A stretch of DNA of 64,000 nt from an uncultured beta proteobacterium (GCA_963827575.1 CAWHCG010000048.1:197018-261017); one strand, 5' to 3'. Counted from the first letter of the stretch, positions 26,518 through 44,438 are shown. A program made the numbers and translations. The notes: generated by a model not told the origin, from the letters alone.

Positions 26518-27255
26518 TCACGCCATCTGGATATCCGAGGACTGGATGCGCTGGACTCCGGCCTTGGCCATCTCCTTCCAGGCCGCCGCGAGCGAACCGC
26601 CCAGATCGATGCCACGGCAGGCGTCCTCGATCACGTCGGCCTGGAAGCCGAACCTGCGCGCATCCAGCGCGGACCACGCGACACAGTAGTCGGTCGCCAG
26701 CCCGCAGACGAACACGCGGTTGATCCCGCGTCCCTTGAGATAGCCGGCCAGCCCGGTTTCGGTCTTGCGGTCGGCTTCCAGGAACGCCGAGTAGCTGTCG
26801 ACGTTGCGGTTGAAGCCCTTGCGGATGATGAGCTGGGCGTGCGGGATGTTGATGCCGCTGACGATTGCGGCCCCCTCGGTGCCCTGCACGCAGTGGTCGG
26901 GCCACAGCACCTGGACGCCGTACTCGAGGTCGATGGTCTCGAACGCCTTCTTCCCGCCATGCTGAGACGCGAAGGAGACATGGTCTGCGGTATGCCAGTC
27001 CTGGGTCAGCACCACGTTCTGGAAACTCCTGGCGAGCTGGTTGATGAGCGGAACGATCTCGTCGCCTCCCTTCACCGCCAGGCTGCCACCCGGGACAAAG
27101 CAGTTCTGCACGTCGATGACCAGCAGCGCGTCGCTCTTGGTCGGTTTGATCTTGCCGGCGGCGAGCGCGCTGCGCAACGCGCCCGCCTGCAGCGCCAGGA
27201 CGGCTGCTCCCGCCCCGGCAGCGTTCAGAAATTGTCTTCTCGTGATGTCCTGCAT
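26518..27255 (-). CDS. pncA: nicotinamidase/pyrazinamidase (isochorismatase family) with twin-arginine signal peptide
   Basis: An ATG with AGGAGGGAG RBS. MQDITRRQFLNAAGAGAAVLALQAGALRSALA (Tat motif), then ALLVIDVQNCFVPGGSLAV..QDWHTADHVSFA..WPDHCVQGT..VCGLATDYCV (catalytic D, K, C). Confidence 0.8.
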   Translation of the reverse strand: MQDITRRQFLNAAGAGAAVLALQAGALRSALAAGKIKPTKSDALLVIDVQNCFVPGGSLAVKGGDEIVPLINQLARSFQNVVLTQDWHTADHVSFASQHGGKKAFETIDLEYGVQVLWPDHCVQGTEGAAIVSGINIPHAQLIIRKGFNRNVDSYSAFLEADRKTETGLAGYLKGRGINRVFVCGLATDYCVAWSALDARRFGFQADVIEDACRGIDLGGSLAAAWKEMAKAGVQRIQSSDIQMA

Positions 27256-27381
27256 ACTCCCTCCTGTCACCCCTCGGTTATTCTCCCCCCGGGCGTATTT
27301 CGCTGCGTGGTCGCGCCCGCGCCACCGTTGTCCAGCGCCGCAAATTCTAGCACCGTTGGGCAAACTCGAGTCCTGAGGGGG

Positions 27382-28585
27382 TCACTGCGACGGGACGCTC
27401 AGCACCACTGGGAGCTCGGTTGCCGGCGGCGTGTTGCGGCTGCGCCCGCAGCGCACTACGCCATCGATCATCACCATGCCGACCCCCGGAAGGTCGCCCA
27501 GAGCCACGCTTTCCAGCAGCGTCCGCCCGGCGGTGTGCTGGGCTCGATCGAGGAATACGAAGTCCGCCGACCGGCCGGGCTCGATGAGCCCGCAGTCGAG
27601 CTTGCGCACGCGGGCCGTGTTGCCGGTGGCGAAGCAGAACGCCTGCTCGGCGGGAATCCCCCCGAGGCTCGACAGCAGGGCAGATCACCCGCAGGATGCC
27701 GAGCGGCTGCACGCCGGAGCCGGCCGGGCCATCGGTCCCCAGGATCACCCGATGCAGGCACTTTCCCGCGCGCGCAGCCTGGGCCGCGGCCACCGCCACC
27801 TTTTCGTTGCCGTTGTGCACGATCTCGATGGCGCGGCTGGAGCGCTCGCACAGCTCGCAGACGTGCGCTTCTGGCAACGCGGTATGACCGCCGTTGATAT
27901 GACCGATCACGTCCGCATCGGCCTCCAGCACAACGTCCTTGTCGATCAGCCCCGACCCGGGGATCGACGGTCCACCGGTGTGGATAGTGCTCTGGATGCC
28001 GTGCTTGCGCGCCCAGGCCACCATCTGCCGTGCCTCCGCGCCCGCTTTCACGGAACCCAGGCCGACCTCGCCCAGCAGCGTGACCCCCGCCGCCGCCAGC
28101 TCGGCAAAGTCCGACTCCGTCATGCCCTTCTCGATCACCGGAGCACCGGCCAGCACCTTCACCCCGCCCGGGCGGAAGTTGTGGAAGGCGCGCTGCGCAG
28201 TGATGGCCAGCGCCTTGAGTCCCACGATGTCCTTCGGTCGCCCCGGCAGATGCACTTCCCCTGCCGAGATCATCGTTGTGACGCCGCCATGGAGCGTGGA
28301 GTCGATCCAGCCCAGCTGGTTCTGGCGCGGTGTCCAGTCGCCGAACACCGGGTGCACGTGGCTGTCGATCAGTCCGGGAGCCAAGGCCACGCCCCTGGCA
28401 TCGATGAGCGTGTCGGGCTGCGCGGTGTCGCAGTCGTTCGCCTTGCCGACCTGCCGGATCACGCCGTCGACCGCCACGACGGTGTCGGCGTCCAGGATCG
28501 GCCGATCGAGATCACCGGAGAGCAACAGGCCGATGTTGCGGATGACGAGCTTGCCCTTGGGGCCGGTGGTGGTGTCGACTGCCAT
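27382..28585 (-). pseudogene. enamidase-like amidohydrolase (metal-dependent hydrolase superfamily), one frame break
   Basis: KLVIRNIGLLLSGDLDRPILDADTVVAVDGVI..GLIDSHVHPVFGDW..HTGGPSIPG..GHINGG. The C-terminus continues in ORF 27382..27609 (LLSSLGGIPAEQAFCFATGNTARVRKLDCGLIEPGRSADFV). The shift is at the GGG run 27678-27680. Confidence 0.7.
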
Positions 28586-28708
28586 GGATAGCGCTCTCCC
28601 CCCGATGTCAGCGGAGTTTCACAGATTGTGCATGGCGCCGCCGCGGGCGTCCATGCGCAGGCCTGCGGCGATGTCGAGGAGTTGGCGGCGCGTGAGCCCC
28701 GTCGAGGC

Positions 28709-29425
28709 TCACACCGTCAGGTACTCCCGTTTCACGTCCTCGTTCGCCGCCAGCTCTCTCATCGTGCCGCTGTAGCGCACCTGGCCCTTTTCGATGACGT
28801 ACGCGCGCTCGCTCACCAGCCGTGCAAAGTGCAGGTTCTGCTCGGACAGCACCACTGCCAGACCTTCCTGCTTGAGCTCGAGGATCATGTTGGCCATGTC
28901 CTCCACGATCTTCGGCGCGATCCCCTCCGAGGGCTCGTCCAGCAATACCAGGTGCGGGTTGCCCATGAGCGTGCGAGCGACCGTGAGCATCTGTTGCTCG
29001 CCGCCGCTCATCTGTCCGCCGGGACGCTCGCGCATCTCACCCAGATTGGGAAACAACTGGAACAGCCTCTCCGGCGACCACGCGGGGGCGCCTTCCCGCT
29101 GCGGCTGCCGGCCCACTTCGAGGTTGTCCAGCACCGAGAGCCCGGTGAAGATGCGGCGGTCCTCCGGCACGTAGCCGAGCCCCGCCCGCGCTCTTTCGAA
29201 TGGCTGCCGTCCGCGCAGCGATTGCCCGCGGAAGGTCACGGTGCCGCTGGTGCGTTCCACCAGGCCGATGATGGCCTTCAGCGTGGTGGACTTGCCCGCG
29301 CCGTTGCGCCCCATCAGCGCGACCACTTCCCCCGGCGCCACCTCGAGCGAGACGTCGAACAGGATCTGCGCCCGCCCGTACCAGGCGCACAGGCGCTCCA
29401 CGCTGAGCAGCCGCTGCGGCGCCAT
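28709..29425 (-). CDS. ABC transporter ATP-binding protein, LivF-like
   Basis: MGRNGAGKSTTLK (Walker A), LSGGEQQML (signature), LVLLDEPSEG (Walker B). The ATG is at 29425, 1 nt after the LivG-like stop. Confidence 0.85.
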   Translation of the reverse strand: MAPQRLLSVERLCAWYGRAQILFDVSLEVAPGEVVALMGRNGAGKSTTLKAIIGLVERTSGTVTFRGQSLRGRQPFERARAGLGYVPEDRRIFTGLSVLDNLEVGRQPQREGAPAWSPERLFQLFPNLGEMRERPGGQMSGGEQQMLTVARTLMGNPHLVLLDEPSEGIAPKIVEDMANMILELKQEGLAVVLSEQNLHFARLVSERAYVIEKGQVRYSGTMRELAANEDVKREYLTV

Positions 29426-29426
29426 T

Positions 29427-30182
29427 TCAGGAGAGCACCGGCTGCGCATGAAACGTCGCGCCGGTCCCCAGGTACACAGCCTGCACCTCGGGATTGTCGC
29501 GGACCTGTGCCGGCGAACCCTGGGCAATGATCTGGCCGCGCGTGAGCACCAGGACATGCTGCGCATAGGTGAAGACCATGTCCATGCTGTGCTCGGTGAA
29601 CAGCACCCCGAGATCGCGCTCGCGCGCGAGCTCGGCGGTCAACGCCATCAGCTCGTTGCGCTCCTTCGGTGCCATGCCTGCGGTGGGCTCATCCATCAGC
29701 AACAACTTCGGGTCATGGGCAAGGGCCATGGCGAGCTCCACGCGCTTGACGTCACCGTAAGCCAGCAGGCCGCAGGGGCGTTCGGCCTGCTCCGCCATCC
29801 CGACCCAGTGCAGTAGCGACAGCGCTTCGTCGCGATAGCGCTCGCCGGCACGCGACCATAGGTCGAACAGCCGCCTGGCACGAGACAGCAGCACCAACTG
29901 AACGTTCTCGCGCACCGTCATCGACGCGTAGGTGGCCGCCACCTGAAAGGTGCGCCCGACGCCGCGCTTCCAGATCTCGCGTGGCGGACGGCCGGTCATG
30001 TCGACCCCCTCGAGCCTGACGGTGCCGCTGTCGGGTTCGAGCTGGCCGTTGAGCAAGTTGAAGCAGGTCGACTTCCCCGCACCGTTGGGGCCGATCAGCG
30101 CCACAAGCTGCCCGCGCTCGAGTGTAAACGACACCTCGCGCACGGCCTGCACGCCGCCGAAGGACTTGGAGAGGTTGGCCAC
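29427..30182 (-). CDS. ABC transporter ATP-binding protein, LivG-like
   Basis: IGPNGAGKSTCFN, YGDVKRVELAMALA, LLLMDEPTAGM. GTG start. Confidence 0.85.
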   Translation of the reverse strand: MANLSKSFGGVQAVREVSFTLERGQLVALIGPNGAGKSTCFNLLNGQLEPDSGTVRLEGVDMTGRPPREIWKRGVGRTFQVAATYASMTVRENVQLVLLSRARRLFDLWSRAGERYRDEALSLLHWVGMAEQAERPCGLLAYGDVKRVELAMALAHDPKLLLMDEPTAGMAPKERNELMALTAELARERDLGVLFTEHSMDMVFTYAQHVLVLTRGQIIAQGSPAQVRDNPEVQAVYLGTGATFHAQPVLS

Positions 30183-30194
30183 CGCCAGCAGCGT

Positions 30195-31130
30195 TCACGC
30201 CTCCCGCCTCACAAAGCGCTGCACCGCGCCGCGCGATGCCCTGCGGGAACGCCACCACCATCAGGATGATCACCGCGCCCAGTATCAGCCGCCAGTAGTC
30301 GGTGCTGCGCATCACCTCCGTTTGCAAGGCGTGATAGGCGGCAGCGCCCACGACCGGACCGCTCAGGGTCTGCAGCCCTCCCAGCAGCACCATGACCAGC
30401 GCATCGACCGACTGCGGTATGGCAAGCACCGTGGGGAAGACATTGCCCTGGTGATACGCGTGGAGCGCACCCGCCAGCGCGGCCGCCGCACCCGCCAGCA
30501 CGAACGCCGCCCATTGCTGGCGGCGCACGTCGATGCCGATCGCCTCCGAGCGCAGCGGCGAGTCCCTGCCCGCCCGCAACGCGTAACCGAAGGGCGAGAA
30601 GATCACCCGCCGCAGCAGGATCAGGCTCGCTGCCGACCACCGCCAGCGTGAAATAGTAGTAGGCCGTCGTCGAAGCCGAGCCAGGCGGGCGGCCATACCC
30701 CGAGGATACCGTTGTCGCCGCCGGTCCAGCCCGCTGTGAAAGCTACCGACCAGACGATCTGCGCGAAGGCGAGCGTGAGCATGGCCAGATAGACGCCGGA
30801 CAGACGGATGCAGAACCAGCCGAACAGGACTGCAACCGCCGCGGCGGCGAGCGGTGCGGCCGCCAGGTTGACCGGCATGGGCGAGGCCGCATGTTTGACC
30901 AGCAGCGCGCAGGCATAGGCGCCGATGCCGAAGTAGACGGCGTGGCCGAAGGACACGAGCCCGCCGATGCTCATGATGAAATGCAGGCTGGCGGCGAACA
31001 GCGCGAGGATCATGATCTCGACGCTCACGAGCTGCGCGTACTCGCCGGCGAGAACCGGCAGGAGCAGAAGAATCGCCAGCAGCAGCATTGCAGCGGCCAG
31101 CACCGGCCGGCTCGCAGGACAGATGGGCAA
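30195..31130 (-). pseudogene. branched-chain-type ABC permease, LivM-like, about three frame breaks
   Basis: N-terminal part in ORF 30621..31130 and middle part in the frame of ORF 29752..30696 (SPFGYALRAGRDSPLRSEAIGIDV..). Two 1-nt shifts lie at ~30640-30680. A further one at ~30228-30234 restores the typical end ..FPQGIAGAVQRFVRREA* (TGA 30195). Confidence 0.7.
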
Positions 31131-31131
31131 C

Positions 31132-32042
31132 TCAGCCGATCTGCGGCGCGACGCGCGGGCGCGCCTCCGGCTTGCCCAGCAGCCCGTAGGGCCGGATCAC
31201 CAGCACCACCGCCATGACCAGGAAGGTCAGCACCAGGGTGAGCTGCGGGAAGATGAGGATGCCGAAGGCGGACAGCAGGCCAACCAGCAGCGCTGCCAGG
31301 AAGGCGCCGGTCACGCTGCCCATCCCGCCAATCACCACCACCACGAAGGCCTCGGCGATGACGTGAATGTCCATCTGCAGGTTCACCGCTTCCTTGGGGA
31401 TCTGCAGCGCACCGCCCAGTCCGGCTAGGAACGAGCCGAGGAACAGCACGCTGGTGAACAGCCACCGCTCGTTTACCCCCAGCGCGCCGGCCATCTCCCG
31501 ATCCTGGGTGGCGGCGCGCACCAGCACGCCCCAGCGCGTGCGGTGGAACAGCAGCCACAGGACGCCCAGCACGATGGGCCGAGCACGATCAGGAACAGGT
31601 GATATTGCGGGAAGCGCTCGCCGAGGATCTCCACGGTTGCCCTCAGACCCGGGGCGCGCGGGGCGAACAGGTCCTCCCGGCCCCAGATGGCGAGCGCGGC
31701 ATCCTGCACCACCAGCACCACCCCGAAGGTGGCCAGCAGCTGGAACAGCTCGGGCGCACGGTAGATCCGTCGCAGCAGCAGGATCTCCATCGCCACCCCG
31801 ACGACGCCCACTGCCGCAGCGGCAAGCACGATCCCGGTCCAGAAGCCCACCGGTGCGCCGAACCGCTCCATCAGGAACCCGCTCGCGCTGTAGGCCGCGT
31901 AGGCACCCAGCATGTAGAACGACCCATGGGCGAAGTTCACGATGCGGGTCACACCGAAGATGATCGACAGACCCGATGCGACCAGGAAGAGGGTCGCGGC
32001 GTGGGACAGGCCGGTGAGGAACTGGATGAGGAAGACGGTCAC
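31132..32042 (-). pseudogene. branched-chain-type ABC permease, LivH-like, one frame break
   Basis: From GTG 32042: MTVFLIQFLTGLSHAATLFLVASGLSIIFGVTRIVNFAHGSFYMLGAY... The frame then changes at the GGG run 31576-31578 into ..IVLGVLWLLFHRTRWGVLVRAATQDREMAGALGVN.. Confidence 0.8.
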
Positions 32043-32050
32043 TTATGCGC

Positions 32051-32249
32051 AAGGCGGGAGGCGCCTGCCCGTGAGGCGGTGAGGCGGGAGGCGAGGCGTC
32101 CCCCAACACTGCTGGTGAGGCGGGAGGCGGGAGGCGGGAGGCGTCCCCCTCACCCCGCCTCTCTGAACGGGGAGAGGGAGGATGCGGGTTATCTATCACC
32201 TAGAACGCCTCACTCGCTCACGCCTCACGCCTCTACGCCTCACGCGCCT
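32051..32249. repeat. composite hairpin element, heptamer class (AGGCGGG/AGGCGTG vs CCTCACG) with REP-like core
   Basis: Two left blocks (32051-32104, 32115-32149) of ggcggga/gtgaggc units. Core ccccctcaccccgcctctctgaacggggagagggagg (~32145-32181). Right arm gcctcactcgctcacgcctcacgcctctacgcctcacgcgcct (32207-32249), abutting the SBP stop. Confidence 0.85.
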
Positions 32250-33440
32250 ACTTCATCGCCTCCACCGGCCGCTTCTTCCTCACCACGCATCCGCTCGGCA
32301 TGTAGTCCTTGCCGTCGGCGTAGCGCCAGTCCACCATGACGCCCTTGTTGCCCTTCAGGTCGAGCTTGCCGACAAAGGCCCAACGTGGATTGCTGGTCGA
32401 TTGCGCGAAAGGTGATGGGGCCGAACACGGTGTCGATCGTCAGGCCGCGCAAGGCCTTGATCAGCTTCTCGGGGTCGGTGGAGCCCGCTTTCCTGAGGGC
32501 CTCGGCGATCGCCATGAAGGTGGTGTAGCCCACCACCGAACCCAGACGCGGTGTGTCGTTGAAGCGTTTCTCGTAGGCCTGCACGAACTTCTGGTGCACC
32601 GGGGTCTTGATCTGTTCCCAGGGATAGCCGGTGACGATCCAGCCCACCGGGGTTTCGTCCTTGAGCGGGTCGAGGTACTCCGGCTCGCCCGACAGCATGC
32701 TGACCACCGCGCGATCCTCGAACAAGCCGCGCAAGTTGCCCTCGCGCACGAACTTGGTCAAGTCGGCGCCGAACGTGACATTGAAGATCGCATCGGGCCT
32801 GGCCGCGGCCAGCGCCTGCACCGTCGCACCCGCCTCCAGCTTGCCCAGCGCCGGCCACTGCTCCTCGACGAACTCGACGTCCGGCCGCTTCGCCTTCAGC
32901 AGGGCCTTGAAGCTCGCCACCGCCGATTGTCCGTACTCGTAGTTGGGCGCCACCGTCGCCCAGCGTTTGGCCGGGAGCTTGGCCGCCTCCTCCGCCAGCA
33001 TGGCCGACTGCATATAGGTGCTCGGACGCAGCCGGAAGGTGTAGCGGTTGCCCTTCTCCCACACCAGCGCATCGGTGAGCGGCTCGGCCGCGACGAACAC
33101 GACCTTGTTGCGCAGGGCGATGTCGCTGACCGCAAGCCCGACGTTGGACAGAAAGGTCCCGGCGAGCAGGTCGACCTTCTGGCTCGCGAGCAGCTCGCTG
33201 GCATGCCGGGTCGCATCGTCCGGCTTGCCGCCGTCATCGCGCGAGATCACTTCCAGCCTGCGCCCCAGCACCCCGCCCGCGGCGTTCACCTCCTCCACCG
33301 CCAGCTCCCAGCCGTTGCGGTAGGGGATCGTGAACGCAGGCACGGTGGAGTAGCTGCTGATCTCGCCGATGCGGATCGGGCTGCTGCGCATGCGCGGCTG
33401 TGAGATCAGCACCAGCGCGCCGAGTGCAATCGCTCGTCAT
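32248..33440 (-). pseudogene. Liv-type (PBP type 1) ABC substrate-binding protein, frame broken near both ends
   Basis: The body is in ORF 32240..33412 (PIRIGEISSYSTVPAF..NGWELAVEEVNAAGGVLGRRLEV..). The C-terminus continues after a 1-nt shift at ~32377-32382 as AFVGKLDLKGNKGVMVDWRYADGKDYMP..VEAMK* (TAG 32248). The likely ATG 33440 (MTS..) is also one frame off the IALGALVLI signal segment. Confidence 0.7.
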
Positions 33441-33465
33441 GTCGGTGAATGAATGAACACCTATG

Positions 33466-33631
33466 CACCGCCAAGGACGCCAAGAACGCAAAGGAAAACC
33501 AGAGTCTGTTTCGACAAGCGCTAACACCCTTGCGCCATTGACGACGCTGGTGTCAAGGCGCGTCGCGGATCGCCTTTTCAGCGCATCCCTGCTTCTCGGT
33601 TCTCTTGGCGTCCTTGGCGTCCTTGGCGGTG
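33466..33631. repeat. composite hairpin element (CCAAGGACG units), SBP-ligase gap
   Basis: Left arm cACCGCcaaggacgccaagaacgcaaaggaaaacc. Right arm ggttctcttggcgtccttggcgtccttgGCGGTg. Spacer ~97 nt. Confidence 0.9.
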
Positions 33632-33641
33632 AAGCTTGGGT

Positions 33642-35355
33642 TTACGCTTTGGGCGCATCGCGCAGCTCGCGCCGCAGGATCTTGCCGACCGGGCTCTTGG
33701 GCAGGGAGTTACGGAACTCGACGTGACGCGGGACCTTGTAACCGGTGAGGTTCTCGCGGCAGTGACGGATCAGCGCCTCGGCGGTAAGCGCAGGGTCTTT
33801 GCGCACCACGAACAGCTTCACGGCCTCCCCGGTGTTCTCGTCCGCCACGCCGATCGCGCAAGCCTCCAGCACGCCCGGGTGCATGGCGACCACGTCCTCG
33901 ATCTCGTTGGGGTACACGTTGAAGCCGGACACCAGGATCATGTCCTTCACCCGGTCCACGATCTTGAGATAGCCCTCCGGGGTGATCAGGCCCAGGTCGC
34001 CGGTGGCGAGCCAGCCGTCGGAGCGCAGGACCTTCGCGGTCTCGTCGGGCCGCTGCCAGTAACCGGCCATGACCTGCGGTCCGCGCACGAACACCTGACC
34101 CACAGCGCCCTGCGGCAGCGCGCGCTCCGCCTCGTCGCGGATCTGCACCTCGGTGCCGGGCAGGGGCAGGCCGGTGGTGCCGGTGTGCTCTTCGATGTCC
34201 AGCCGGTTGATGGAGACAGCGCCGGAGGTCTCGGTGAGTCCGTAGCCCTCGGAGAGCACGCGCCCGGTGATCTCCTTCCAGCGCTTGGCCACCGCGAGCT
34301 GCACCGGCGCGCCGCCGCCGCCCGCCATGCGCAGGTTGCTGAAGTCGACCTTGGCGAAAGCTTCGTTGTGGATGAGCGCGTTGAACAGCGTATTGACGCC
34401 GACGAAGAACGTGAACCGGTTGGCGCCGAGGGTCTTGACCAGGTTGGGGATATCCCGCGGGTTGGCGATCAGGATCTGCAAGCCTCCGCCGCGCACGAAC
34501 ATCATGCAGTTCAGCACCAGCGCCAGGATGTGATAGAACGGCAGCGGCGCGACCGCGATTTCCTGGCCGGCTCGCACGGTGTTCCCGGTATAAGCGAGGA
34601 TCTGCTCGACATTGGACAGGACGTGCCGGTGCTGCAGTATCGCGCCCTTGGACACCCCGGTGGTGCCGCCGGTGTACTGCAGGAACGCCAGATCCTCGGC
34701 CGCCAGTGGCGGCACGCTCATGCTTGCGCCCGCCCCCCCGGCGAGGGCTTGCGGGAAGCGCACTGCACCCGCGATGCTCCAGGGCTTGACCATCTTCTTG
34801 ACGCGCCGGAACACGAAATTGATCAGCGCCGCCTTTGATCCAGCCCAGCAGGTCCCCGATCGACGCGACTATCACGTGCTTGACGGGCGTGCGCGCGATG
34901 ACCTCCTGAAGTGTGTGCGCCGCACTCTCGAAGATCACGATCCCCGCGGCGCCCGAATCCTTGAGCTGGTGCTCCAACTCCCGAGCGGTGTAGAGTGGAT
35001 TGACGCTGACCACCGCCAGCCCCGCGCGCAGGATCCCATAGACGGCGATCGGATACTGCAGGATGTTGGGCATCATGATCGCCACACGCTCGCCCTTGCG
35101 CAGCCCCAGGCGGGTCTGCAGGTACGCGGCGAAGTCGCGTGACAAGCGATCCAGCTCGCCATAGCTGATCTGGACGCCGAAGCTCTCGAACGCGGGCTGG
35201 TCGCGGTAGCGCTGAACGCTCGCCTCGAGCATCTGCGGGATCGACTCAAACTCCAGCGGACCCAGTTCCGCGGGCGCGCCGGGCGGGTAGCTCTTCAACC
35301 ACGGCTTCGCTTCGCTACCGCTGGTCATCGACTCCATCTGCGTGCTCCCGGCCAT
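33642..35355 (-). pseudogene. long-chain/medium-chain acyl-CoA ligase (FadD-like, AMP-binding), one frame break
   Basis: N-terminal half in ORF 33709..35355 (..PWLKSYPPG..ERVAIMMPNILQYP..). The C-terminal half in ORF 33642..34814 has LQYTGGTTGVSKGA, GYGLTETS, WLATGDLG and KVPRHVEF. The shift lies at ~34826-34834. The ATG 35355 overlaps the upstream stop (TGATG). Confidence 0.8.
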
Positions 35356-35939
35356 CAGCGCAACCCGTCCTGGCCCTTGATCTCGTGGCTCGACAACCCG
35401 CCCACGCGCGCAAGCGGCCGCCCGCTGTCTGTAACGGCCACCGCCACGACGATTTCGCCGGGCCTTGGCGCATCGCCGACCCGTGCCTCGATCGCGTCGA
35501 AATGGCTGCGCACATAGGCGGCGTCCTTGTGCCCGAGCGGCACGTCGATGGCCGTGCCCAGCGTGCCGATTTTCTTGGCCGAGGGTACCAGCGCCGCGCC
35601 TTTCTCGACCGCCCGGCGCAGCGGCGCTCCCAGTTTCGGGTGCAGGATCGCGGCCGCGTGCTCCAGCTCTCCGGCCTCGCCGACGATCGCCGCTTTACCG
35701 TAGCTCTCGGCGTGTGCCGGTGCGATCCCCAGCGCGTGCACGCAGCGCTCCCCCAGCAATCCGCCCAGCTCTTCGCCGATGTCCATCAGCTCGGTGAGAT
35801 CCTCGGCATAGCGGCCGGCGAAAGGATTGGCGACCACCGCCATCGCCACGGCACGCCGCGTTGGCGGGCTCACCTCGCGGCCCATCTCCATGCGCACCTC
35901 GTCCACCTGGACCACGATCTTCCTGATGCTCGCTTTCAT
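35355..35939 (-). CDS. amino acid synthesis family protein (PF06684/DUF1185-like), paralog 1
   Basis: MKASIRKIVVQVDEVRMEMGREV..AVVANPFAGRYAEDL..YGKAAIVGEAGELEHAAAILHP..VPSAKKIG..DVPLGHKDAAYVRSHFD, the pattern I associate with this family. Confidence 0.7.
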   Translation of the reverse strand: MKASIRKIVVQVDEVRMEMGREVSPPTRRAVAMAVVANPFAGRYAEDLTELMDIGEELGGLLGERCVHALGIAPAHAESYGKAAIVGEAGELEHAAAILHPKLGAPLRRAVEKGAALVPSAKKIGTLGTAIDVPLGHKDAAYVRSHFDAIEARVGDAPRPGEIVVAVAVTDSGRPLARVGGLSSHEIKGQDGLR

Positions 35940-35956
35940 CTTGCCTACACCCTTTC

Positions 35957-36060
35957 TCAACCGCAGAGGCGCAGAGAACACCTGTTTGCTGGTGACGCCG
36001 GGGCCAGTGTTCGTGCCATATGCATTTTCCTCTGCGAGCCTCTGCGCCTGTGCGGTTGGA
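35957..36060. repeat. composite hairpin element (GCAGAGGCG units), short copy
   Basis: Left arm tcaACCGCagaggcgcagagaacac. Right arm ttttcctctgcgagcctctgcgcctgtGCGGTtgga. Spacer ~43 nt. It lies between the two amino-acid-synthesis-family paralogs. Confidence 0.85.
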
Positions 36061-36065
36061 CCCGG

Positions 36066-36644
36066 TTAACGCAGGCCATCGGCGCCCTTGATCTCCGTGG
36101 CACGCAGGCCACCCACGCGCTCGTGCACGCGCGGCCCCGTCGCCATCACCAGGCAGTAGATCAGCTCGTCGGCGGCCGGCGCGCCCGGAACATACACCTC
36201 CATGGCGTCGAAGTGGCTGCGCACGTAGCTCGCGTTTACATGAGTGACCGGTACATCCAGTTTGGTGCCGGGTGCGCCCACCTTCTTCGCGGAGGGCACG
36301 ATGGCTTTGGCGCCGCCCAGCACCTCGCGCATGGCATAGCCCCCCGGCACATGCCACAGCGCGCCGTGCTCCAGCTCGCCGGCCGCGCCAATGATCGCGC
36401 CCTTGCCGTAGCCCTCGATCTCGCGCGGCATAACGCCGATCGCCGCAACCAGCCGCCGCGACAGGTCCAGGCCCAGCGGATTGAGCGCCTCCATCATGGG
36501 CATGATGTTGGGCTCATAGCGGCCTGCGAAGGGGTTGGTGAGCACCGCGCACACTGCGCCGCGCTTGAGCGGCCGCGCCGGGAGCGGGCCGAACTCGTGG
36601 AAGATCTCCTCGACCTGGGTAAAGATCTCGCGTATCTCGATCAT
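36066..36644 (-). CDS. amino acid synthesis family protein, paralog 2
   Basis: MIEIREIFTQVEEIFHEFG..AVLTNPFAGRYEPNI..YGKGAIIGAAGELEHGALWHVP..VPSAKKVG..DVPVTHVNASYVRSHFD. Clearly paralogous to 35355..35939. Confidence 0.7.
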   Translation of the reverse strand: MIEIREIFTQVEEIFHEFGPLPARPLKRGAVCAVLTNPFAGRYEPNIMPMMEALNPLGLDLSRRLVAAIGVMPREIEGYGKGAIIGAAGELEHGALWHVPGGYAMREVLGGAKAIVPSAKKVGAPGTKLDVPVTHVNASYVRSHFDAMEVYVPGAPAADELIYCLVMATGPRVHERVGGLRATEIKGADGLR

Positions 36645-36661
36645 GCCCGACCCGTACCATC

Positions 36662-37558
36662 TCAGCCCCTGGATGCAGGCGGCTGCGAACCACCCCGATC
36701 CGGAACCGGCGCCGTCAATGCTGCCACGCCACCGACCGCCCGCGCGCTTCCGCGCAGACACATCACCGCAGCCGCGATAGTACCTGCATCCAGCAAACGC
36801 TGCGCGTGGGCCGCGCCGGCCGCCAGCGCGCGCTCGATCTGCTCTGTCGACAGGGCGCCAACGTCCACGGTCACGGGGCGTGGCCCCAGGTCGGTGTCGT
36901 CCTTCAGCTCACATGCCGGGCGGCGGATGATCGTCGCGGCGTCGACGTCGACGTCATTGGCGATCATGGTCGCGGCCGCGTCGGCCTCGGCGGCGCTGCG
37001 CGCCAGCACCGTCACGCTGTCGGCGATGCCGAGGCTGAAACTGCGCCCGCGCCAGCCGCTGGTGGCGATGCCCCGCACCGGCTGGTCCGCGGTCACTTCG
37101 AAGGCAGCGTCGAGGCCGAGCGGTTTGCGACCTTGCGATCCGCCCAGCTCGGCGACCAACCCGACGCGGTAGGCCTGACCGGGAGCCAGACACACCGCGA
37201 TGTCGCCCCCGTTGTTCACGTACGCACGACGCACGCCGGCCACGCGAAAAAAGCCGATCATCTCGTCGGCTACCGCGCCCGCCACCGCCGCCATCGGAGT
37301 GATGAACCGCTCGCGGTGCGGCCAGCACGCCGCAACCATGCGCTTCGCGACCGGCTGCCGGACCCCGCCTGCGTCCCGCACCGGCGAGCGCAGCATCCGC
37401 AATTCACCGACCAGCTCAGCCAGGACGCGCTCGAAGCGTTGCCATGCACGTCCGACGGCGAGCTCGACCGCTTCCCGCTCGCCGTCTGCCCCGATGACGA
37501 GATCGATCGGCCCATGCTGGAAATGCCAGCGCCCGTCGGGGAAGCGGGCGCGGCTCGC
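36662..37558 (-). CDS. UPF0280 (ApbE-related) family protein, 5' boundary unresolved (no start codon before the conserved N-terminus)
   Basis: In frame: ..FPDGRWHFQHGPIDLVIGADGEREAV.. (37481-37543) and FITPMAAVAGAVADEM..NNGGDIAV..GIATSGWRGRSFSLGIADSVTVLA. The track ORF starts only at TTG 37402. Upstream the frame runs into the heptamer repeat without ATG/GTG/TTG. Confidence 0.6.
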   Translation of the reverse strand, partial: ASRARFPDGRWHFQHGPIDLVIGADGEREAVELAVGRAWQRFERVLAELVGELRMLRSPVRDAGGVRQPVAKRMVAACWPHRERFITPMAAVAGAVADEMIGFFRVAGVRRAYVNNGGDIAVCLAPGQAYRVGLVAELGGSQGRKPLGLDAAFEVTADQPVRGIATSGWRGRSFSLGIADSVTVLARSAAEADAAATMIANDVDVDAATIIRRPACELKDDTDLGPRPVTVDVGALSTEQIERALAAGAAHAQRLLDAGTIAAAVMCLRGSARAVGGVAALTAPVPDRGGSQPPASRG

Positions 37559-37561
37559 TGC

Positions 37562-37857
37562 CCGTGAGGCGGGAGGCGGGAGGCGGGAGGCGTCCGATCG
37601 CGTGAGGGGAGGCGGGAGGCGGGAGGCGTCCCCCGATACTGCTGCGTGAGCGGGAGGCGGGAGGGGGAGGGTCCCCTCACCCCTGCCCTCTCCCCCGTGA
37701 ACGGGGGAGAGGGAGTATGCTGTTGGGCTGCTTCAGTAACGGATTGACGCCTCACGCCTCACGCACTCGAACGCCTCACGCCTCACGCCTCACGCCTCAC
37801 GCCTCACGCCTCACGCCTCACGCCTCACGCCTCACGCCTCACGCCTCACGCCTCACG
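37562..37857. repeat. composite hairpin element, largest copy: AGGCGGG blocks, REP-like core, GCCTCAC x12 array
   Basis: Left blocks 37562-37670. Core CCCTCTCCCCC gtgaac GGGGGAGAGGG (37686-37713, 11-bp perfect stem). Right arm GCCTCAC x2 (37749-37763) and an uninterrupted x12 run (37773-37857), ending 3 nt from the stop at 37861. Confidence 0.9.
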
Positions 37858-37860
37858 GTT

Positions 37861-39309: not shown

Positions 39310-39344
39310 GGCTCCACCAAGCTACGACGCTAGGACTGAACGAC

Positions 39345-39562
39345 GAACCGCCAAAGCAACACAGAGGAAACTTGAACGGTCCTCCAGCGAAAATCTGAAT
39401 GGGCCGCCAAGACGCCAAGACGCCAAGGAAACCAATACAGACTCTCTCGCAACCATACGCACAGGGAACCCCGAAGGAGATGCAGGGCTGTTCTTGGCGT
39501 CTTGGCGTCTTGGCGGCCATTCAGGTTTTCCCTCGTGTCTTGGCGTATGGGTTCTTGGCGGC
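39345..39562. repeat. nested/double composite hairpin element (CCAAGACG octamer units)
   Basis: Outer left gaACCGCcaaagcaacacagaggaaac (39345-39371). Inner left ctgaatgggCCGCcaagacgccaagacgccaaggaaacc (39395-39433). Inner right gttcttggcgtcttggcgtcttgGCGGccattcag (39490-39524). Outer right gttttccctcgtgtcttggcgtatgggttcttGGCGGc (39525-39562). Confidence 0.85.
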
Positions 39563-39597
39563 CCCAGCGCTTCTTCCTCGGCGGTCCAATCGATTCA

Positions 39598-42366
39598 CTA
39601 GCGCGACTGGTCGAGGATGGCCTTGCGCACACGGTCGGGCGTCGCGGGCACGTGCGTGATGCGCACGCCGGCAGCATGGCGGACGGCGTTGAGGATGGCC
39701 GGCGCGGTCGGGATGAGCGCGGGCTCGCCCACACCTTTCGCGCCATACGGCCCGAGCGGCTCGGGGTCCTCGATGATGTGCACGACGATCGGCGGCACGT
39801 CGCCGACGGTCGGAATCAGATAGTCGTGCAGGTTGTCGGACCGGCCGGCGTGATACTCCTCCATGAGCGCCATGCCCAACCCCTGGGCGATGCCGCCGTG
39901 GATCTGCCCTTCCACCTGGGTCGGGTTGATGGCTCGGCCCACGTCATGCGCGGCGTGCATCTTCAGGACCTTGACCCTGCCCAGATCGAGATCGACCTCG
40001 ACCTCCGCGATCTGGGCACCGAAACCGTAAGTGGCGTAGGGAACGCCCTGGCCATTGGCATCGAGCGGCGTGGTGGGCGGATCGAAGTAGCCCTCGCCCA
40101 CGGCGATGGCGCCGTCGGCATCGGCCGGCAAAGCAGCCAGCACCACGCGCCACTCCCGTGCGCCGCTGCGGCCCACCAGCGCGCCCGCCTCCACGGCCAG
40201 CCCGGCGTCGGCAGGCGCGAGCAGCAACTCGAGAAGGCGATCCCGCAAGGCCACACCGGCGAGACGAGCGGCGTTGCCCGACACGAAAGTCTGACGCGAT
40301 GCCGAGGACTTGCCGGCGTCGGCGGTGAGGTCCGTGTCACCCATCACCTGGTCGAACATCGCCACCGGCAGGCCGAGTGCGTCGGCGCAGATCTGCGGCA
40401 GGATGGTGTTCGAACCCTGGCCGATATCCACCGCGCCGTTGTACAGGAACACGCAGCCATCGCGGCGCAGGGCTACCCGAATGGTGGAGGGGTTGGCGAT
40501 CACGGTATTGCCGATGCCGTACCACATGCAGGCGATGCCCACCCCGCGCCGGCTGCCGCGCCGCGATCCGGCGAGGGCATGCTGGCAGGCGTTGTACCCG
40601 GCCACCGCGGACAGCGCCTGCTCCCAGGCGGGTTTGAGTGCGGTCAGGCACTGGACCAGTCCAGCGCTGGCTTCGAGCACCTGGCCGGTGGCGGTGGCCT
40701 GGCCTGCCCGGATGGCGTTGCGCCAGCGCAGCTCGAAACGGTCGATCCCGGTCTGTTCCGCCAAGTCGTCGAGCAACGCTTCATGCACAAGCGTGGATTG
40801 CGGTACACCAAAGCCGCGGAACGCACCCGCGATCGGCCCGTTGGTATAGATCGCCCGGGTCAACGCCCGCACGCTGGGCACGAAGTATGGGCCGCTGGCG
40901 TGGATCGGGACGCGGTTGGCGACCGTGTTCCCCCAGGACGCATAAGCACCCGTGTTGAAATCGCCGAAGAAGTCGGCCGCCAGCAGGCGGCCCTCTGCGT
41001 CGCACCCGAAGCGTGCCTGCATGCGGGCGGGATGCCGCTTGGGTGTCGACAGCATCGACTCCGGCCGCGTATAAGCGCAGCGCACCGGGCGGCCGAGCTT
41101 CCAGGCCGCGACTGCCAGCAGCGGCTGGATGGAGATGTCGAGCTTGCCGCCGAAGCCTCCGCCGATCGCCGAGGGCACGATGTGCACCTGGTCCTCGCGG
41201 ACCTTGAGCACGCGCGCCACCTCTTCGCGATCCATGTAGGGCGTCTGCGTGCACACGAACAGGCGGATGCGATCACCCAGTCGTTCGGCGTAGCCGGCCT
41301 CCGGCTCGATGTAGGCGTGCTCGACGAAGCTGGTCGTGAACGTGCCGTGCGCCAGATACGGCGCGGCGCCCAGCGCCGCATCCACGTTGCCTTTGACCAC
41401 GCGGCCGCGGATCAGCACGTTGTCGGGGGCGAACTCGTGCAGCGGAGTGCTCGAAGCCAGAGCGCGATCCATATCCAGCACCGGCTCCTCCGGCTGCCAT
41501 TCGATCGGCAGCTCGGCCTCATCGATCTCCATCACTGCCTGGTATTCCCCCACGAGGGCCAGCACCGCCTCGCCGTGGAACCGCACCCCGCCCGCCGCCA
41601 GCACCGGCTGATCCTTCACCTGCGGGAAGATACCGAAGCTGTTCTCGGGCACATCACGCGCGCTGAGCACATCGACCAGTCCCGGGTGCCGTGCTCGCAG
41701 CGCCCCGAAGTCGCCCAGCGAGAAGCGGGCTCGCGCATGGGGCGAGCGGATGACACGCAGCCAGAGGGCATCAGGGGGTGCGGTGTCGGCGCCAAAGCGC
41801 TCGCTGCCGGTCACCTTGGCTATGCCGTCCAGCTTGGCCACCCGCGCACCGACCGCCTGCCCAGCCGGCGGCTGTGGCGAGTCCACCAGGCCGCGCGCCG
41901 CAGCCAGCACCGCCTCGACGATCTTACGGTAGCCCGTGCAGCGGCACAGCACGCCTGCCAGGCCGTCGAGGACCTGCTCCGCGCTGGGGTCGGGGTGGCG
42001 CGCCAGAATATCGGCCGCGGCCATCAGCATGCCCGGTGTGCAGATCCCGCACTGCGCGGCGCCGTGCGCGAGGAAGGCTTGCTGCAGGGGCGACAGCTCG
42101 CCCCCGCTTGCCAGCCCCTCGACGGTGGTGACCCGCCGCCCCTGCACCTGACCGGCGGCCACCAGGCAGGCGCACACCTGCTGGCCGTCCAGCAGGACGG
42201 TACAAGCACCGCAATCGCCGGCGTTACAGCCGACCTTGGTGCCGGTGAGGCCCAGACCATCGCGCAGCACGTCGGACAGCCGCTCGCCGGGATGCGCCAC
42301 CACCCGGCAGGGCCGTCCATTCAGCTCGAGCTGCAGGTCCGTCTGCGGGCGGAAGCGCTCATTCAC
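39598..42366 (-). CDS. molybdopterin hydroxylase, fused 2Fe-2S + Mo-binding subunit (xanthine dehydrogenase/aldehyde oxidase family; nicotinate-hydroxylase-like by context)
   Basis: N-terminus LTGTKVGCNAGDCGACTVLLDG..GAAQCGICTPGMLM..LCRCTGY (two 2Fe-2S sites), then an aldehyde-oxidase a/b-hammerhead and Mo-binding region (..AHDVGRAINPTQVEGQIHGG..GAKGVGEP). The start is taken at the GTG overlapping the upstream stop (GTGAATGA). Confidence 0.85.
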   Translation of the reverse strand: MNERFRPQTDLQLELNGRPCRVVAHPGERLSDVLRDGLGLTGTKVGCNAGDCGACTVLLDGQQVCACLVAAGQVQGRRVTTVEGLASGGELSPLQQAFLAHGAAQCGICTPGMLMAAADILARHPDPSAEQVLDGLAGVLCRCTGYRKIVEAVLAAARGLVDSPQPPAGQAVGARVAKLDGIAKVTGSERFGADTAPPDALWLRVIRSPHARARFSLGDFGALRARHPGLVDVLSARDVPENSFGIFPQVKDQPVLAAGGVRFHGEAVLALVGEYQAVMEIDEAELPIEWQPEEPVLDMDRALASSTPLHEFAPDNVLIRGRVVKGNVDAALGAAPYLAHGTFTTSFVEHAYIEPEAGYAERLGDRIRLFVCTQTPYMDREEVARVLKVREDQVHIVPSAIGGGFGGKLDISIQPLLAVAAWKLGRPVRCAYTRPESMLSTPKRHPARMQARFGCDAEGRLLAADFFGDFNTGAYASWGNTVANRVPIHASGPYFVPSVRALTRAIYTNGPIAGAFRGFGVPQSTLVHEALLDDLAEQTGIDRFELRWRNAIRAGQATATGQVLEASAGLVQCLTALKPAWEQALSAVAGYNACQHALAGSRRGSRRGVGIACMWYGIGNTVIANPSTIRVALRRDGCVFLYNGAVDIGQGSNTILPQICADALGLPVAMFDQVMGDTDLTADAGKSSASRQTFVSGNAARLAGVALRDRLLELLLAPADAGLAVEAGALVGRSGAREWRVVLAALPADADGAIAVGEGYFDPPTTPLDANGQGVPYATYGFGAQIAEVEVDLDLGRVKVLKMHAAHDVGRAINPTQVEGQIHGGIAQGLGMALMEEYHAGRSDNLHDYLIPTVGDVPPIVVHIIEDPEPLGPYGAKGVGEPALIPTAPAILNAVRHAAGVRITHVPATPDRVRKAILDQSR

Positions 42367-43201
42367 CGGCCAGCCCTCGCAGAGCACGCTGGATCAGCCG
42401 TTCGGCCGCCTCCGTCCGGTAGGCGGCGGTGCCCCGCACGTCGTCGATCGGACTCAACCCCGCGAGATCGTTCGAGTGCACGAGGCCCGCGGCCTGAGCC
42501 AGCGGCCGCCCGACGAGCCGCGCCTCCAGTGCCGGGAGGCGCTGCGCCACCGGCGAGCACGCGCCCACCGCAACCGCCGCCTCCACCACTGTCCCCCTTT
42601 CGTCCACATCCAGGGCAACGGCGGCCATCAGGATTGAGATCACCAGGTAGCGGCGCGCGCCCAGCTTGAGAAAGGTCGAGCGCGCCCGCGCGCTGCGCTC
42701 GGGGATCAGGAAGGCCGTGACCAGCTCGTCGGACTGGCGCGCAGTCTGCCGCCCGCCGGTGATGAAGCCGGCCAGCGGCACGCGGCGCCGCCCGCGCGCG
42801 CTCGCCAGCTCTACCTGCCCGCCCAGCGCGAGCAGGCAAGGCACGCCGTCGGCCGCCGGCGAAGCGTTGCAGACGTTGCCACCCAGGGTACCGGCGTTCT
42901 GGATCTGCATGCCGCCGACCTCGCGGGCCGCCAGCTTGAGCGCATCGAACAGGGCGGGCAGCGGCTCTGCCAGGATGTCGGACCAGGTGGTGAGCGCACC
43001 GATGCGCCAGATGCCGTCCTCGCGGCCGATGCCGCGCAGGACGGCGACACGGGTGATGTCGAGGACATCTTCGCGCAGCGGCCGCCCGACGCGCGCAGGA
43101 TAGAAATCCGTACCCCCGGCGAGCACGGAGAGCGCGCGCCCGGACAGCGCCGCCAGAGCCTCCTCCAACCCGGCCGGTTGCAGATACAGCGGTTGTTGCA
43201 C
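42359..43201 (-). CDS. FAD-binding subunit of molybdopterin hydroxylase (CoxM/XdhB-like)
   Basis: LAGGTDFYPA..IGALTTWSD..QIQNAGTLGGNVCNASPAADG..DVRGTAAYR. The start is taken at GTG 43201, 13 nt after GAGGAG. The track ORF extends to 43258. Confidence 0.8.
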   Translation of the reverse strand: MQQPLYLQPAGLEEALAALSGRALSVLAGGTDFYPARVGRPLREDVLDITRVAVLRGIGREDGIWRIGALTTWSDILAEPLPALFDALKLAAREVGGMQIQNAGTLGGNVCNASPAADGVPCLLALGGQVELASARGRRRVPLAGFITGGRQTARQSDELVTAFLIPERSARARSTFLKLGARRYLVISILMAAVALDVDERGTVVEAAVAVGACSPVAQRLPALEARLVGRPLAQAAGLVHSNDLAGLSPIDDVRGTAAYRTEAAERLIQRALRGLAGE

Positions 43202-43411
43202 AGCCTTGCCTTGCTCCTCGATTGGCGGCGGCTCGATCCGCGGCGGCCCGACGGCCACCGCGCCGGCGGGTGTGGAGTGGCTGCTACAAAGTTTTAAGAA
43301 CCCGCTTTATTCCCGCCCGCGTGGCAACATATCCTACGGGGCGGCAACTTTCAACCCTGCCCCGGCTTCGGTTACTATCGCAGCTCGCAACTTCCGCGCC
43401 CGGGGAACGCC

Positions 43412-43735
43412 ATGACCCACGTCGTCACCGAATCCTGCATCAAGTGCAAGTACACCGACTGCGTGGACGTGTGCCCGGTGGACTGCTTCCGCGAGGGACC
43501 GAACATGCTGGTGATCGACCCCGACGAGTGCATCGACTGCGCAGTCTGCATCCCCGAGTGCCCGGTCAATGCCATCTACGCGGACGTGGACCTGCCCCAG
43601 AAGCAGCTGCACTTCACCGATCTGAACGCGGAGCTCTCCAAGACCCTCCCGTCGATCACCGGCAAAAAGGAAGCCCCGCCGGATGCCGACGCCTGGAAGG
43701 ACGTGACGGACAAGCTGCAGTACCTGGAACGCTGA
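43412..43735 (+). CDS. fdxA: 7Fe ferredoxin (Azotobacter FdxA type)
   Basis: [55 protein letters not shown], the canonical 3Fe-4S + 4Fe-4S Cys pattern. 107 aa. Confidence 0.9.
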
Positions 43736-43751
43736 GGCGCCGGCGGCGCTC

Positions 43752-44438
43752 ATGGCCGTAGCCGCAGCGCCCGCGCGCTCAGCCGCACGCAAGCCCCGCG
43801 CCGCCGCGGTCGTGAAGCGCGACCCGGCCGGCATGCAGCGCCGCATCCTGGATGCGGCCCGGGCGGAGTTCGCGGGCCACGGCTTCGGCGGCGCACGGGT
43901 CGAGCGGATCAGCCGCCGCGCCCGCACCGTGGACCGGATGCTGTACTACTACTTCGGCAGCAAGGACGGGCTGTTCCGTGCCGTGCTCGAGGACAGCTAC
44001 GAGAAGCTCGGCCGCGCCGAGCAGCAGCTCGAGCTCTCGGGGGTCGATGCGGTGGAGGGGATGCGCCAGCTCATCGCCTTCACCTGGGACTACTATCTGA
44101 TGCACCCGGAGTTCATCCGCCTGCTCAACAGCGAGAACCTGTACCGGGGCGAGCACGTGAAGAAGTCCCGCCGGGTGAAGGCGCTGTCCTTCCCGCTGCT
44201 GTCGGTCCTGACCGGCCTGCTCGAGCGGGGTGCGCAGCAGTGCCGCTTCCGCCGCGGCATCGATCCGGTGGAGATCTACATCACGATCGCGGCCCTGGGC
44301 TACTTCTACCTCTCCAATCGCTACACGCTGACGCGCTTTCTCGGTGTCGATCTGATGGCAAAAGCGCGCCGGGAGCGCTGGCTCGAACATATCACCAGCG
44401 TGGTGCTGGACCACATCGCTCTGCCCTCCACAGCTTGA
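43752..44438 (+). CDS. TetR/AcrR family transcriptional regulator
   Basis: ILDAARAEFAGHGFGGARVERISRRARTVDRMLYYYFGSKDGLF, a TetR HTH. Confidence 0.8.
   Translation: MAVAAAPARSAARKPRAAAVVKRDPAGMQRRILDAARAEFAGHGFGGARVERISRRARTVDRMLYYYFGSKDGLFRAVLEDSYEKLGRAEQQLELSGVDAVEGMRQLIAFTWDYYLMHPEFIRLLNSENLYRGEHVKKSRRVKALSFPLLSVLTGLLERGAQQCRFRRGIDPVEIYITIAALGYFYLSNRYTLTRFLGVDLMAKARRERWLEHITSVVLDHIALPSTA

Follow-up and report, generated by a model that had tools for sequence, protein, structure and literature searches.

Nicotinate and nicotinamide abound as vitamins and as metabolites of plants and algae, and the reductive route through 6-oxo-1,4,5,6-tetrahydronicotinate (THON) is the least studied bacterial nicotinate pathway, having been followed in aerobes only physiologically. 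The 6-hydroxynicotinate reductase (Hnr) of Eubacterium barkeri carries a covalently bound flavin, one [2Fe-2S] and two [4Fe-4S] clusters, and the 2006 paper on this organism reportedly noted the first three genes of the route in nine Proteobacteria. The THON route of E. barkeri and Azorhizobium caulinodans has been summarised (PMC9304392), and a homologous cluster was described in 2012 in A. caulinodans, Bradyrhizobium, R. palustris and strain SG-6C, the last of which grows on nicotinate and 6-hydroxynicotinate; this published proteobacterial cluster includes an ATP-binding cassette (ABC) transporter and two unknown proteins (PMC3511419). A full-text literature search found no later genetic dissection of it. 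Here we analyse a stretch of 64,000 nucleotides from an uncultured beta proteobacterium (GCA_963827575.1 CAWHCG010000048.1:197018-261017; hereafter the window, numbered from its first nucleotide), with a G+C content of 65-70%, in which every real gene between positions 26518 and 43258 lies on the minus strand and belongs to a putative cluster of this kind (Table 1).

We consider, with a probability of about 0.8, that this proteobacterial locus encodes the catabolism of nicotinate (vitamin B3) by a route of the E. barkeri/Azorhizobium type, together with its own uptake system. A first annotation made from the DNA alone (the sequence-only reading) had proposed a hybrid nicotinamide/nicotinate catabolic pathway with dedicated import, and the homology comparisons for the amidohydrolase, the hydroxylase, the reductase and the nicotinamidase all came out in its favour, that for the reductase through indirect homology. 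Likewise, the gene order and families that it listed for 26518-43258 on the minus strand were borne out by Pfam, NCBIfam and tblastn searches, the last with the proteins of L002, a related locus in which the genes are intact.

The hydroxylase has a complete domain set and, per residue, its closest solved relatives are all four subunits of the E. barkeri nicotinate dehydrogenase (PDB 3HRD), in agreement with the nicotinate type first proposed for it. The fused Fe-S/molybdenum subunit matched chains A, B and D (NdhL, NdhM and NdhS) with 263, 225 and 144 bits, respectively, and the top PDB match of the flavin adenine dinucleotide (FAD) subunit was 3HRD_C (NdhF), with 103 bits. These chains scored 0.6-1.0 bit per residue, versus 0.44 for the next-best PDB match, the aldehyde oxidoreductase MOP.

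For the 482-aa Hnr-like protein, neither Pfam nor NCBIfam nor the PDB gave a match. Its close homologues number over 8000, and several of them bear the name 6-hydroxynicotinate reductase; an exhaustive homologue search resolved the family into 1253 representative clusters, with members named '6-hydroxynicotinate reductase' or 'hnr' by NCBI/JGI in both Proteobacteria and Bacillota; PGAP also uses the former name for alphaproteobacterial homologues carried on plasmids, with 61-67% identity. Residues C12, C15, C19, C29 and C222 are invariant in the family alignment, in which distant full-length members show 30-45% identity, and most of these, including the named Bacillota proteins, possess at the N-terminus an additional 2x[4Fe-4S] domain, which is absent from the window protein. 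A search seeded with a Bacillota-type member retrieved Sporomusa, Desulfotomaculum and 'hnr' entries among the top 120 matches listed; an E. barkeri entry was not found among these, nor in the clusters of ten distant Hnr representatives. The E. barkeri enzyme is 42% identical to a proteobacterial homologue (PMC3511419). The reductase-like gene thus appears to belong to the Hnr family, as had been predicted, with named members from Proteobacteria and Bacillota forming what looks like a single continuous family.

The amidohydrolase proved to be enamidase-like, as anticipated: it matched the E. barkeri enamidase (PDB 2VUN, E 4e-74) end to end over its intact N-terminal part, with an alignment spanning residues 12-247. 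Its C-terminal part sits in the neighbouring frame; once rebuilt across the two frames, the protein shows 93% identity to its intact counterpart in L003. At the 3' end of the cluster, the PncA product scored 202.5 bits against NF008623 (cutoff 174) and matched 2WT9, the characterised nicotinamidase from Acinetobacter, with an E value of 9e-86. A PncA gene lies 3' of the ATPase genes in 39 related loci, and the proposal that an exported nicotinamidase feeds the pathway thereby gained support. Its Pfam TAT_signal score of 19.1 is under the cutoff of 22.7; the N-terminus nevertheless has a T-R-R-Q-F-L motif ahead of a hydrophobic stretch and ALA-A, and the RR motif is present in at least 32 of the 39 cluster-linked orthologues. 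We therefore regard PncA as a true nicotinamidase with a probable twin-arginine signal, which would place it in the periplasm.

From these identities, a pathway can be proposed in which the Tat-exported nicotinamidase would convert nicotinamide to nicotinate in the periplasm, its family being established by homology and its location predicted from the signal peptide. The Liv-type ABC importer, to judge by its invariant linkage, would then bring nicotinate into the cell, where the FAD/[2Fe-2S]/molybdenum hydroxylase, homologous to NdhFSLM, would produce 6-hydroxynicotinate. Hnr, assigned through indirect homology, would reduce this compound to THON, with electrons that probably come from a separately encoded ferredoxin, since the window protein has no two-[4Fe-4S] domain. 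The enamidase, a close homologue of the E. barkeri enzyme, would open the ring to yield 2-formylglutarate and ammonia. Finally, the carbon skeleton might proceed via glutarate and glutaryl-CoA, a continuation reported for Azorhizobium (PMC3511419), and the FadD-like ligase would be a candidate, if weak, activating enzyme.

To place the locus in context, we compared it with a set of related loci obtained from a genome scan anchored on DUF1185 genes, which retrieved 80 Burkholderiales loci; the comparison table comprises 82 loci. These share a fixed core of genes for Hnr, UPF0280, the two DUF1185 proteins (DUF1185-1 and DUF1185-2), the binding protein, the fused permease and two ATPases, which are adjacent and co-oriented in essentially every Burkholderiales locus that extends far enough. 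Across Burkholderiales and alphaproteobacterial plasmids the core includes one or two DUF1185 genes, and the plasmid versions are syntenic with the window, with 50-71% protein identity. The modules around the core vary. The FAD plus Fe-S/molybdenum hydroxylase occurs in around 13 loci, including the window, and around 50 loci from Variovorax, Acidovorax, Polaromonas, Rhodoferax and others carry instead a NicA/NicB-like pair with cytochrome c in the large subunit. The hydroxylase module is therefore exchanged between lineages, because in most Comamonadaceae it is a NicA/NicB-like enzyme that accompanies this Hnr core. In the NicA/NicB-type loci, the genes for the enamidase, a TetR protein, ferredoxin-NADP reductase and often ferredoxin are divergent and upstream. 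The trio of Hnr, enamidase and hydroxylase is also found in one distant lineage.

Further variants were seen outside the Burkholderiales. In plasmids of Pleomorphomonas, Sagittula and Fuscovulum, a hydantoinase A/B (oxoprolinase-family) pair replaces the enamidase (L083, 15005-18840; L088, 5522-9261; L089, 22974-26682), which suggests an ATP-dependent alternative for opening the lactam ring of THON. Two Roseobacter-group loci contain, between the DUF1185 and importer genes, a gene for the alpha subunit of a Rieske-type ring-hydroxylating oxygenase (L084, 16070-17137; L088, 17532-18602); as pure speculation, this enzyme may feed a methylated or otherwise substituted pyridine, such as trigonelline, into the pathway. 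Locus L087 (4172-14971) encodes a distant Hnr homologue, with 42% identity and no Fer4 domain, whose neighbours are a three-subunit molybdenum hydroxylase, an ADP-forming acyl-CoA synthetase, a carboxyltransferase, a RidA-family protein and an Amidohydro_2 enzyme, and which could possibly represent a CoA-dependent variant of the pathway.

Five of the genes listed in the sequence-only reading, namely the ligase, the binding protein, the 'two permeases' and the enamidase, are not intact open reading frames (ORFs), and their frameshifts went unnoticed in it. We located frame changes with a third-position G+C (GC3) frame plot, a codon-usage Viterbi parse and tblastn, and the responsible indels by three-way DNA alignment with L002 and L003. 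At least nine frame-breaking indels of 1-2 nt affect the ligase (+1 at ~34827), the binding protein (-2 at ~32381, and three alternating +/-1 changes over 55 nt in the signal peptide, 33380-33435), the permease (-1 at ~31571, and +1 at ~31140, 30673 and 30633) and the enamidase (+1 at ~27682), such that the single 614-aa permease of L002 and L003 aligns to the window in four separate tblastn segments. These are very probably consensus errors of a long-read assembly rather than gene decay, because protein identity on both sides of each indel is 80-100%, as high as in the intact genes; because every gene is intact in the short-read metagenome relatives L002 and L003; because L001, a long-read metagenome assembly to judge by its contig name, shows around 15 different frameshifts in the same genes; and because unrelated genes are split too. 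Among the latter, a beta-lactamase-family gene (~8065) and a gene for a PaaK-like ligase (~15052) each run across two frames, and a PaaC-like gene (~18000) lacks its N-terminal third and gives a partial domain match, which suggests a generally indel-prone assembly; a fragment of a T2SSE ATPase is also fused to DUF1840 at 55619-56425. We examined whether the frameshifts could be assigned to homopolymer errors, and only some are in short runs while three lie beside GATC, a pattern that is suggestive and not diagnostic. The alternative, that the indels are real and have disabled import, ring opening and the ligase in a decaying cluster that no longer functions, draws on the density of indels (at least nine in 27.6-34.9 kb, with approximately 2-4 detectable in the other 56 kb), on the UPF0280 gene without a start codon and on the repeat elements inserted in four intergenic gaps. 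We hold it to be improbable, because there are no premature stops within the correct frames or any other sign of decay, identity to the relatives is equal in broken and intact genes, an alternation of +1 and -1 indels over 55 nt is what consensus errors typically give, and the shifts of the independent assembly L001 fall at other places in the same genes, with none in the short-read assemblies. In any case, given the many small indel errors, a raw ORF reading overestimates gene integrity in this window.

A different objection is that the cluster degrades another N-heterocycle or cyclic amide, such as a pyridine carboxylate other than nicotinate, a purine-like compound or a lactam, and resembles nicotinate clusters through shared chemistry only. 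The best NCBIfam model for the molybdenum subunit is indeed a selenium-dependent xanthine dehydrogenase, albeit under its cutoff, the importer family is generic, and the modules are evidently reused, because related clusters swap the hydroxylase type and replace the enamidase by hydantoinase A/B, and because one Rhodobacter locus has the enamidase and DUF1185 genes without Hnr or hydroxylase. Against this stand the match of the hydroxylase to four out of four nicotinate dehydrogenase subunits, a true PncA equivalog conserved at the cluster end, and the homologous clusters of bacteria in which nicotinate breakdown through 6-hydroxynicotinate and THON has been demonstrated (PMC3511419), so that another substrate seems very unlikely to us.

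The assignment as a nicotinate cluster also has to be set against several observations that weigh against it or against parts of it. The use of nicotinate for growth by way of 6-hydroxynicotinate and THON would seem to be known only from other, non-Burkholderiales bacteria (PMC3511419, PMC9304392), and the link between the window Hnr and that of E. barkeri appears to follow from database names and from the published 42% identity for another proteobacterium. Nicotinate is proposed as the substrate of the importer from gene linkage only. The 64-kb window contains no glutaryl-CoA dehydrogenase, aldehyde dehydrogenase or other glutarate-pathway genes, and 78 of the 82 related loci lack the FadD-like ligase, so that the last step of the pathway is not encoded locally. 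The target motif for flavinylation by ApbE, D-x-x-[ST]-G-A-[ST] (PMC12052999), was absent in a motif search from Hnr and from all other cluster proteins, and the two Hnr neighbourhoods examined outside Proteobacteria both contain a molybdenum hydroxylase, one of them also an enamidase-like amidohydrolase, and neither contains UPF0280 or DUF1185; the roles proposed below for these two families are thus hypothetical. Finally, most of the detected indels are within 7.5 kb of the 64-kb window, and are more clustered than expected of random error.

UPF0280 and the DUF1185 (PF06684) pair keep company with Hnr and the ring-opening genes even though the hydroxylase, the enzyme that opens the ring and the genes for later steps are exchanged. 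The UPF0280 protein scored 296.7 against NCBIfam NF003322 (cutoff 290) and 23.9 bits, under the cutoff of 25.6, against the Pfam ApbE model PF02424; its sole PDB relative is 2O34, an uncharacterised protein, with an E value of 0.001. There is no ATG, GTG or TTG 5' of the conserved N-terminus of its ORF, where a 290-nt repeat element occupies the site. The gene adjoins Hnr in all 80 of the proteobacterial Hnr-bearing loci, and is absent from two loci without Hnr (L004 and L080). Since UPF0280 always accompanies Hnr, our hypothesis is that it is probably a maturation or partner protein for this enzyme. That it might be a flavin transferase for a covalent flavin in Hnr is a weak hypothesis, supported neither by the motif search nor by the non-proteobacterial neighbourhoods; the sole feature of Hnr similar to the flavinylation motif is an invariant G-C-G-S-A-T stretch, and the invariant Cys222 is a candidate for an alternative flavin attachment site.

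The two DUF1185 paralogues are 46% identical to each other and are kept in all related loci. We considered that they could be obligate subunits of Hnr, an idea weakened by L004 and L080, which have the DUF1185 pair and the enamidase without Hnr. Because DUF1185 tracks the ring-opening step, our hypothesis is that the most likely substrate of the pair is the enamine or aldehyde left after ring opening, on which it might work as a deaminase, tautomerase or decarboxylase. PF06684 was named 'amino acid synthesis' from its neighbouring Liv-type transporters alone (PMC2954203); as the Liv-type ABC genes belong to the nicotinate cluster in at least around 80 genomes, the label 'amino acid synthesis family protein', used by Pfam and PGAP, is probably misleading. 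A literature search on DUF1185 function and on PDB 3I45 returned nothing past the structure note of 2010. Tentatively, and with doubts that outweigh our confidence, it could be argued that UPF0280 and the two DUF1185 proteins are essential, uncharacterised parts of the proteobacterial nicotinate pathway, with UPF0280 as a dedicated maturation or electron-transfer partner of an Hnr without the 2x[4Fe-4S] domain, and a DUF1185 hetero-oligomer as the 2-formylglutarate decarboxylase or enamine deaminase of the Azorhizobium route to glutarate; a conserved periplasmic conversion of nicotinamide to nicotinate coupled to import might be a second, small novelty.

The binding protein of the importer matched PDB 3I45 with an E value of 8.6e-160 and 65-70% identity, and the 'two permeases' turned out to be one fused LivH-LivM gene for a protein of ~614 aa in every relative examined, the window copy being split by a +1 indel. 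The FadD-like ligase is found only in the window and in L001-L003, that is, in four of the 82 loci. The earlier suggestion that this ligase hints at the downstream steps holds only in part: it is confined to a narrow lineage, and as a conserved member of the pathway it was rejected, with the ligase of a Sulfitobacter plasmid only 28% identical to it. In that plasmid, nevertheless, non-orthologous AMP-ligase, acyl-CoA dehydrogenase, enoyl-CoA hydratase and 3-hydroxyacyl-CoA dehydrogenase genes adjoin the enamidase gene, which supports the idea of an acyl-CoA continuation.

The cluster does not end at position 43258, as had been supposed, because a divergent unit for ferredoxin, a TetR protein and a flavin mononucleotide (FMN)-dependent dehydrogenase (43412-45655) is kept in the closest relatives and is also part of the locus. 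The 7Fe-type ferredoxin is a candidate electron donor to Hnr; a ferredoxin was detectable beside the cluster in 19 of the 82 loci, and a ferredoxin-NADP reductase gene accompanies it in 48. In most of these loci the cluster is bordered by a TetR gene, whose product is the likely regulator. The FMN-dependent dehydrogenase was seen only in the window, L001 and L002. In the divergent region (43202-43411) we found one sigma-70-like site on the minus strand (43354-43326), no more than expected by chance, and no inverted repeat.

Table 1. Features of the putative nicotinate cluster and of its divergent unit in the 64-kb window
Feature	Position	Strand	Evidence
Nicotinamidase PncA, 245 aa, N-terminus MQDITRRQFL...	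26518..27255	-	NCBIfam NF008623, PDB 2WT9
Enamidase homologue, ~400 aa after removal of the +1 indel near 27682	27382..28585	-	PDB 2VUN
ABC ATPase, LivF-like	28709..29425	-	Pfam ABC_tran; 87% identity to L002 ATPase2
ABC ATPase, LivG-like, BCA_ABC_TP_C tail	29427..30191	-	Pfam, tblastn
Fused LivH-LivM permease, 4 frame segments	30209..32042	-	Pfam BPD_transp_2 halves; tblastn
Periplasmic binding protein, Peripla_BP_6	32248..33440	-	Pfam; PDB 3I45
FadD-like acyl-CoA ligase	33642..35355	-	Pfam AMP-binding halves in two frames; NCBIfam long-chain-fatty-acid--CoA ligase models
PF06684/DUF1185 paralogue 2	35355..35939	-	Pfam E 8e-73; PDB 2QTP E 4e-91
PF06684/DUF1185 paralogue 1	36066..36644	-	Pfam E 8e-69
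UPF0280 / distant ApbE-like protein	36662..37567	-	NCBIfam NF003322
Intergenic repeat element, (GAGGCGG)n, spacer, inverted (ACGCCTC)15	37566..37857		Sequence repeats
Hnr homologue, 482 aa	37861..39309	-	Named homologues; family alignment
Fused [2Fe-2S] + molybdopterin subunit, 922 aa	39598..42366	-	Pfam Fer2, Fer2_2, Ald_Xan_dh_C, MoCoBD_1, MoCoBD_2
FAD subunit of hydroxylase	42359..43201	-	Pfam FAD_binding_5, CO_deh_flav_C; PDB 3HRD_C (NdhF)
Divergent intergenic region	43202..43411		Candidate sigma-70-like site 43354-43326, minus
7Fe-type ferredoxin	43412..43735	+	91% identity to L002 ferredoxin (Fer4 + DUF3470)
TetR-family regulator, TetR_C_29	43752..44438	+	Pfam
FMN-dependent alpha-hydroxy-acid dehydrogenase family protein	44468..45655	+	Pfam FMN_dh E 5.5e-140

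The window also contains a number of intergenic repeat elements with a common architecture, in which a unit of 7-9 nt is repeated 3-15 times and is followed by a spacer of 40-120 nt and then by repeats of the reverse complement of the unit. They are located at 4672-4763, 16055-16196, 20331-20468, 22138-22372, 32117-32251, 33469-33628, 37566-37857 and 39405-39515, with single repeat arrays at 14643, 17382, 19194 and 47769. The sequence of the unit varies between copies, and three of the spacers share a hairpin-like core, CCCCTCACCCC...GGGGAGAGGG. Four of the elements fall between genes of the nicotinate cluster, and L002 has none of them at the corresponding junctions. As neighbours of the nicotinate cluster, the window includes a phenylacetate (paa) cluster at 13343-22133, with genes for enoyl-CoA hydratase, a thioesterase, PaaK, PaaA-E, TetR and an FAA hydrolase, and a methylamine dehydrogenase (mau) cluster at 50885-54781, with genes for the heavy chain, MauE, a redoxin, the light chain and cytochrome c.

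On its own, the locus adds little; its comparison with some 90 related loci produces a clean list of parts, composed of a fixed Hnr/UPF0280/DUF1185/ABC core, exchangeable hydroxylase, ring-opening and downstream modules, and a frequently attached exported nicotinamidase. This comparison gives PF06684 and UPF0280, two widespread families, a concrete and testable context, and points to culturable strains that have an intact cluster, such as Variovorax paradoxus, Acidovorax sp. GW101-3H11 and Sulfitobacter pontiacus. For Acidovorax sp. GW101-3H11, a literature search found no published fitness or genetic data on the cluster.

Among the described systems, the nic cluster of P. putida KT2440 (NicAB, NicC, NicX, NicD, NicF and NicE) shares with the window the first reaction, the molybdenum-dependent conversion of nicotinate to 6-hydroxynicotinate. 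The routes diverge after this compound, where the window has the reductive Hnr and the enamidase instead; no NicC-type monooxygenase, NicX dioxygenase or maleamate-branch genes were found in the cluster with Pfam, every ORF belonging to another family. With the E. barkeri cluster (NdhFSLM, Hnr and Ena), in contrast, the window appears to have the first three steps in common, with a related molybdenum hydroxylase, an Hnr-family reductase and a close enamidase homologue, although the equivalents of NdhS, NdhL and NdhM are fused in its 922-aa protein. Its Hnr also differs from those of Bacillota in lacking the N-terminal 2x[4Fe-4S] domain, and there is a separate ferredoxin gene instead. The later E. 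barkeri genes (Hgd, Hmd, Mgm, Mii, Dmd and Dml, which include the 2-(hydroxymethyl)glutarate dehydrogenase and the B12 mutase) have no counterpart in the cluster or the window, which adds to the E. barkeri set the ABC importer, the exported nicotinamidase, UPF0280 and the two DUF1185 genes.

The version found in Comamonadaceae (L007-L082, from Variovorax, Acidovorax sp. GW101-3H11, Polaromonas and others) has an identical core and usually the exported PncA. Its hydroxylase, unlike that of the window, consists of a small 2Fe-2S subunit and a molybdenum/cytochrome c subunit of more than 1090 aa, encoded downstream (e.g. L031, 16797-20582, from Acidovorax sp. GW101-3H11); the enamidase, TetR, ferredoxin-NADP reductase and ferredoxin genes are divergent upstream, and there is no FadD-like ligase.

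A further described system is the proteobacterial cluster of A. caulinodans ORS571 (AZC_2790-2804), Bradyrhizobium, R. palustris and SG-6C (PMC3511419, Fig. 4), of which the window locus is a betaproteobacterial (Burkholderiales) member, synteny having been compared on the alphaproteobacterial plasmids. With respect to the Azorhizobium-type cluster, the window has the FadD-like ligase between the DUF1185 genes and the importer, the FMN-dependent dehydrogenase in the divergent unit, and the enamidase and PncA at the 3' end. Because the proteobacterial cluster was already published (PMC3511419), the idea is less new than the sequence-only reading implied: this kind of cluster has been described in Proteobacteria, and the window adds to it a betaproteobacterial member with minor lineage-specific additions.

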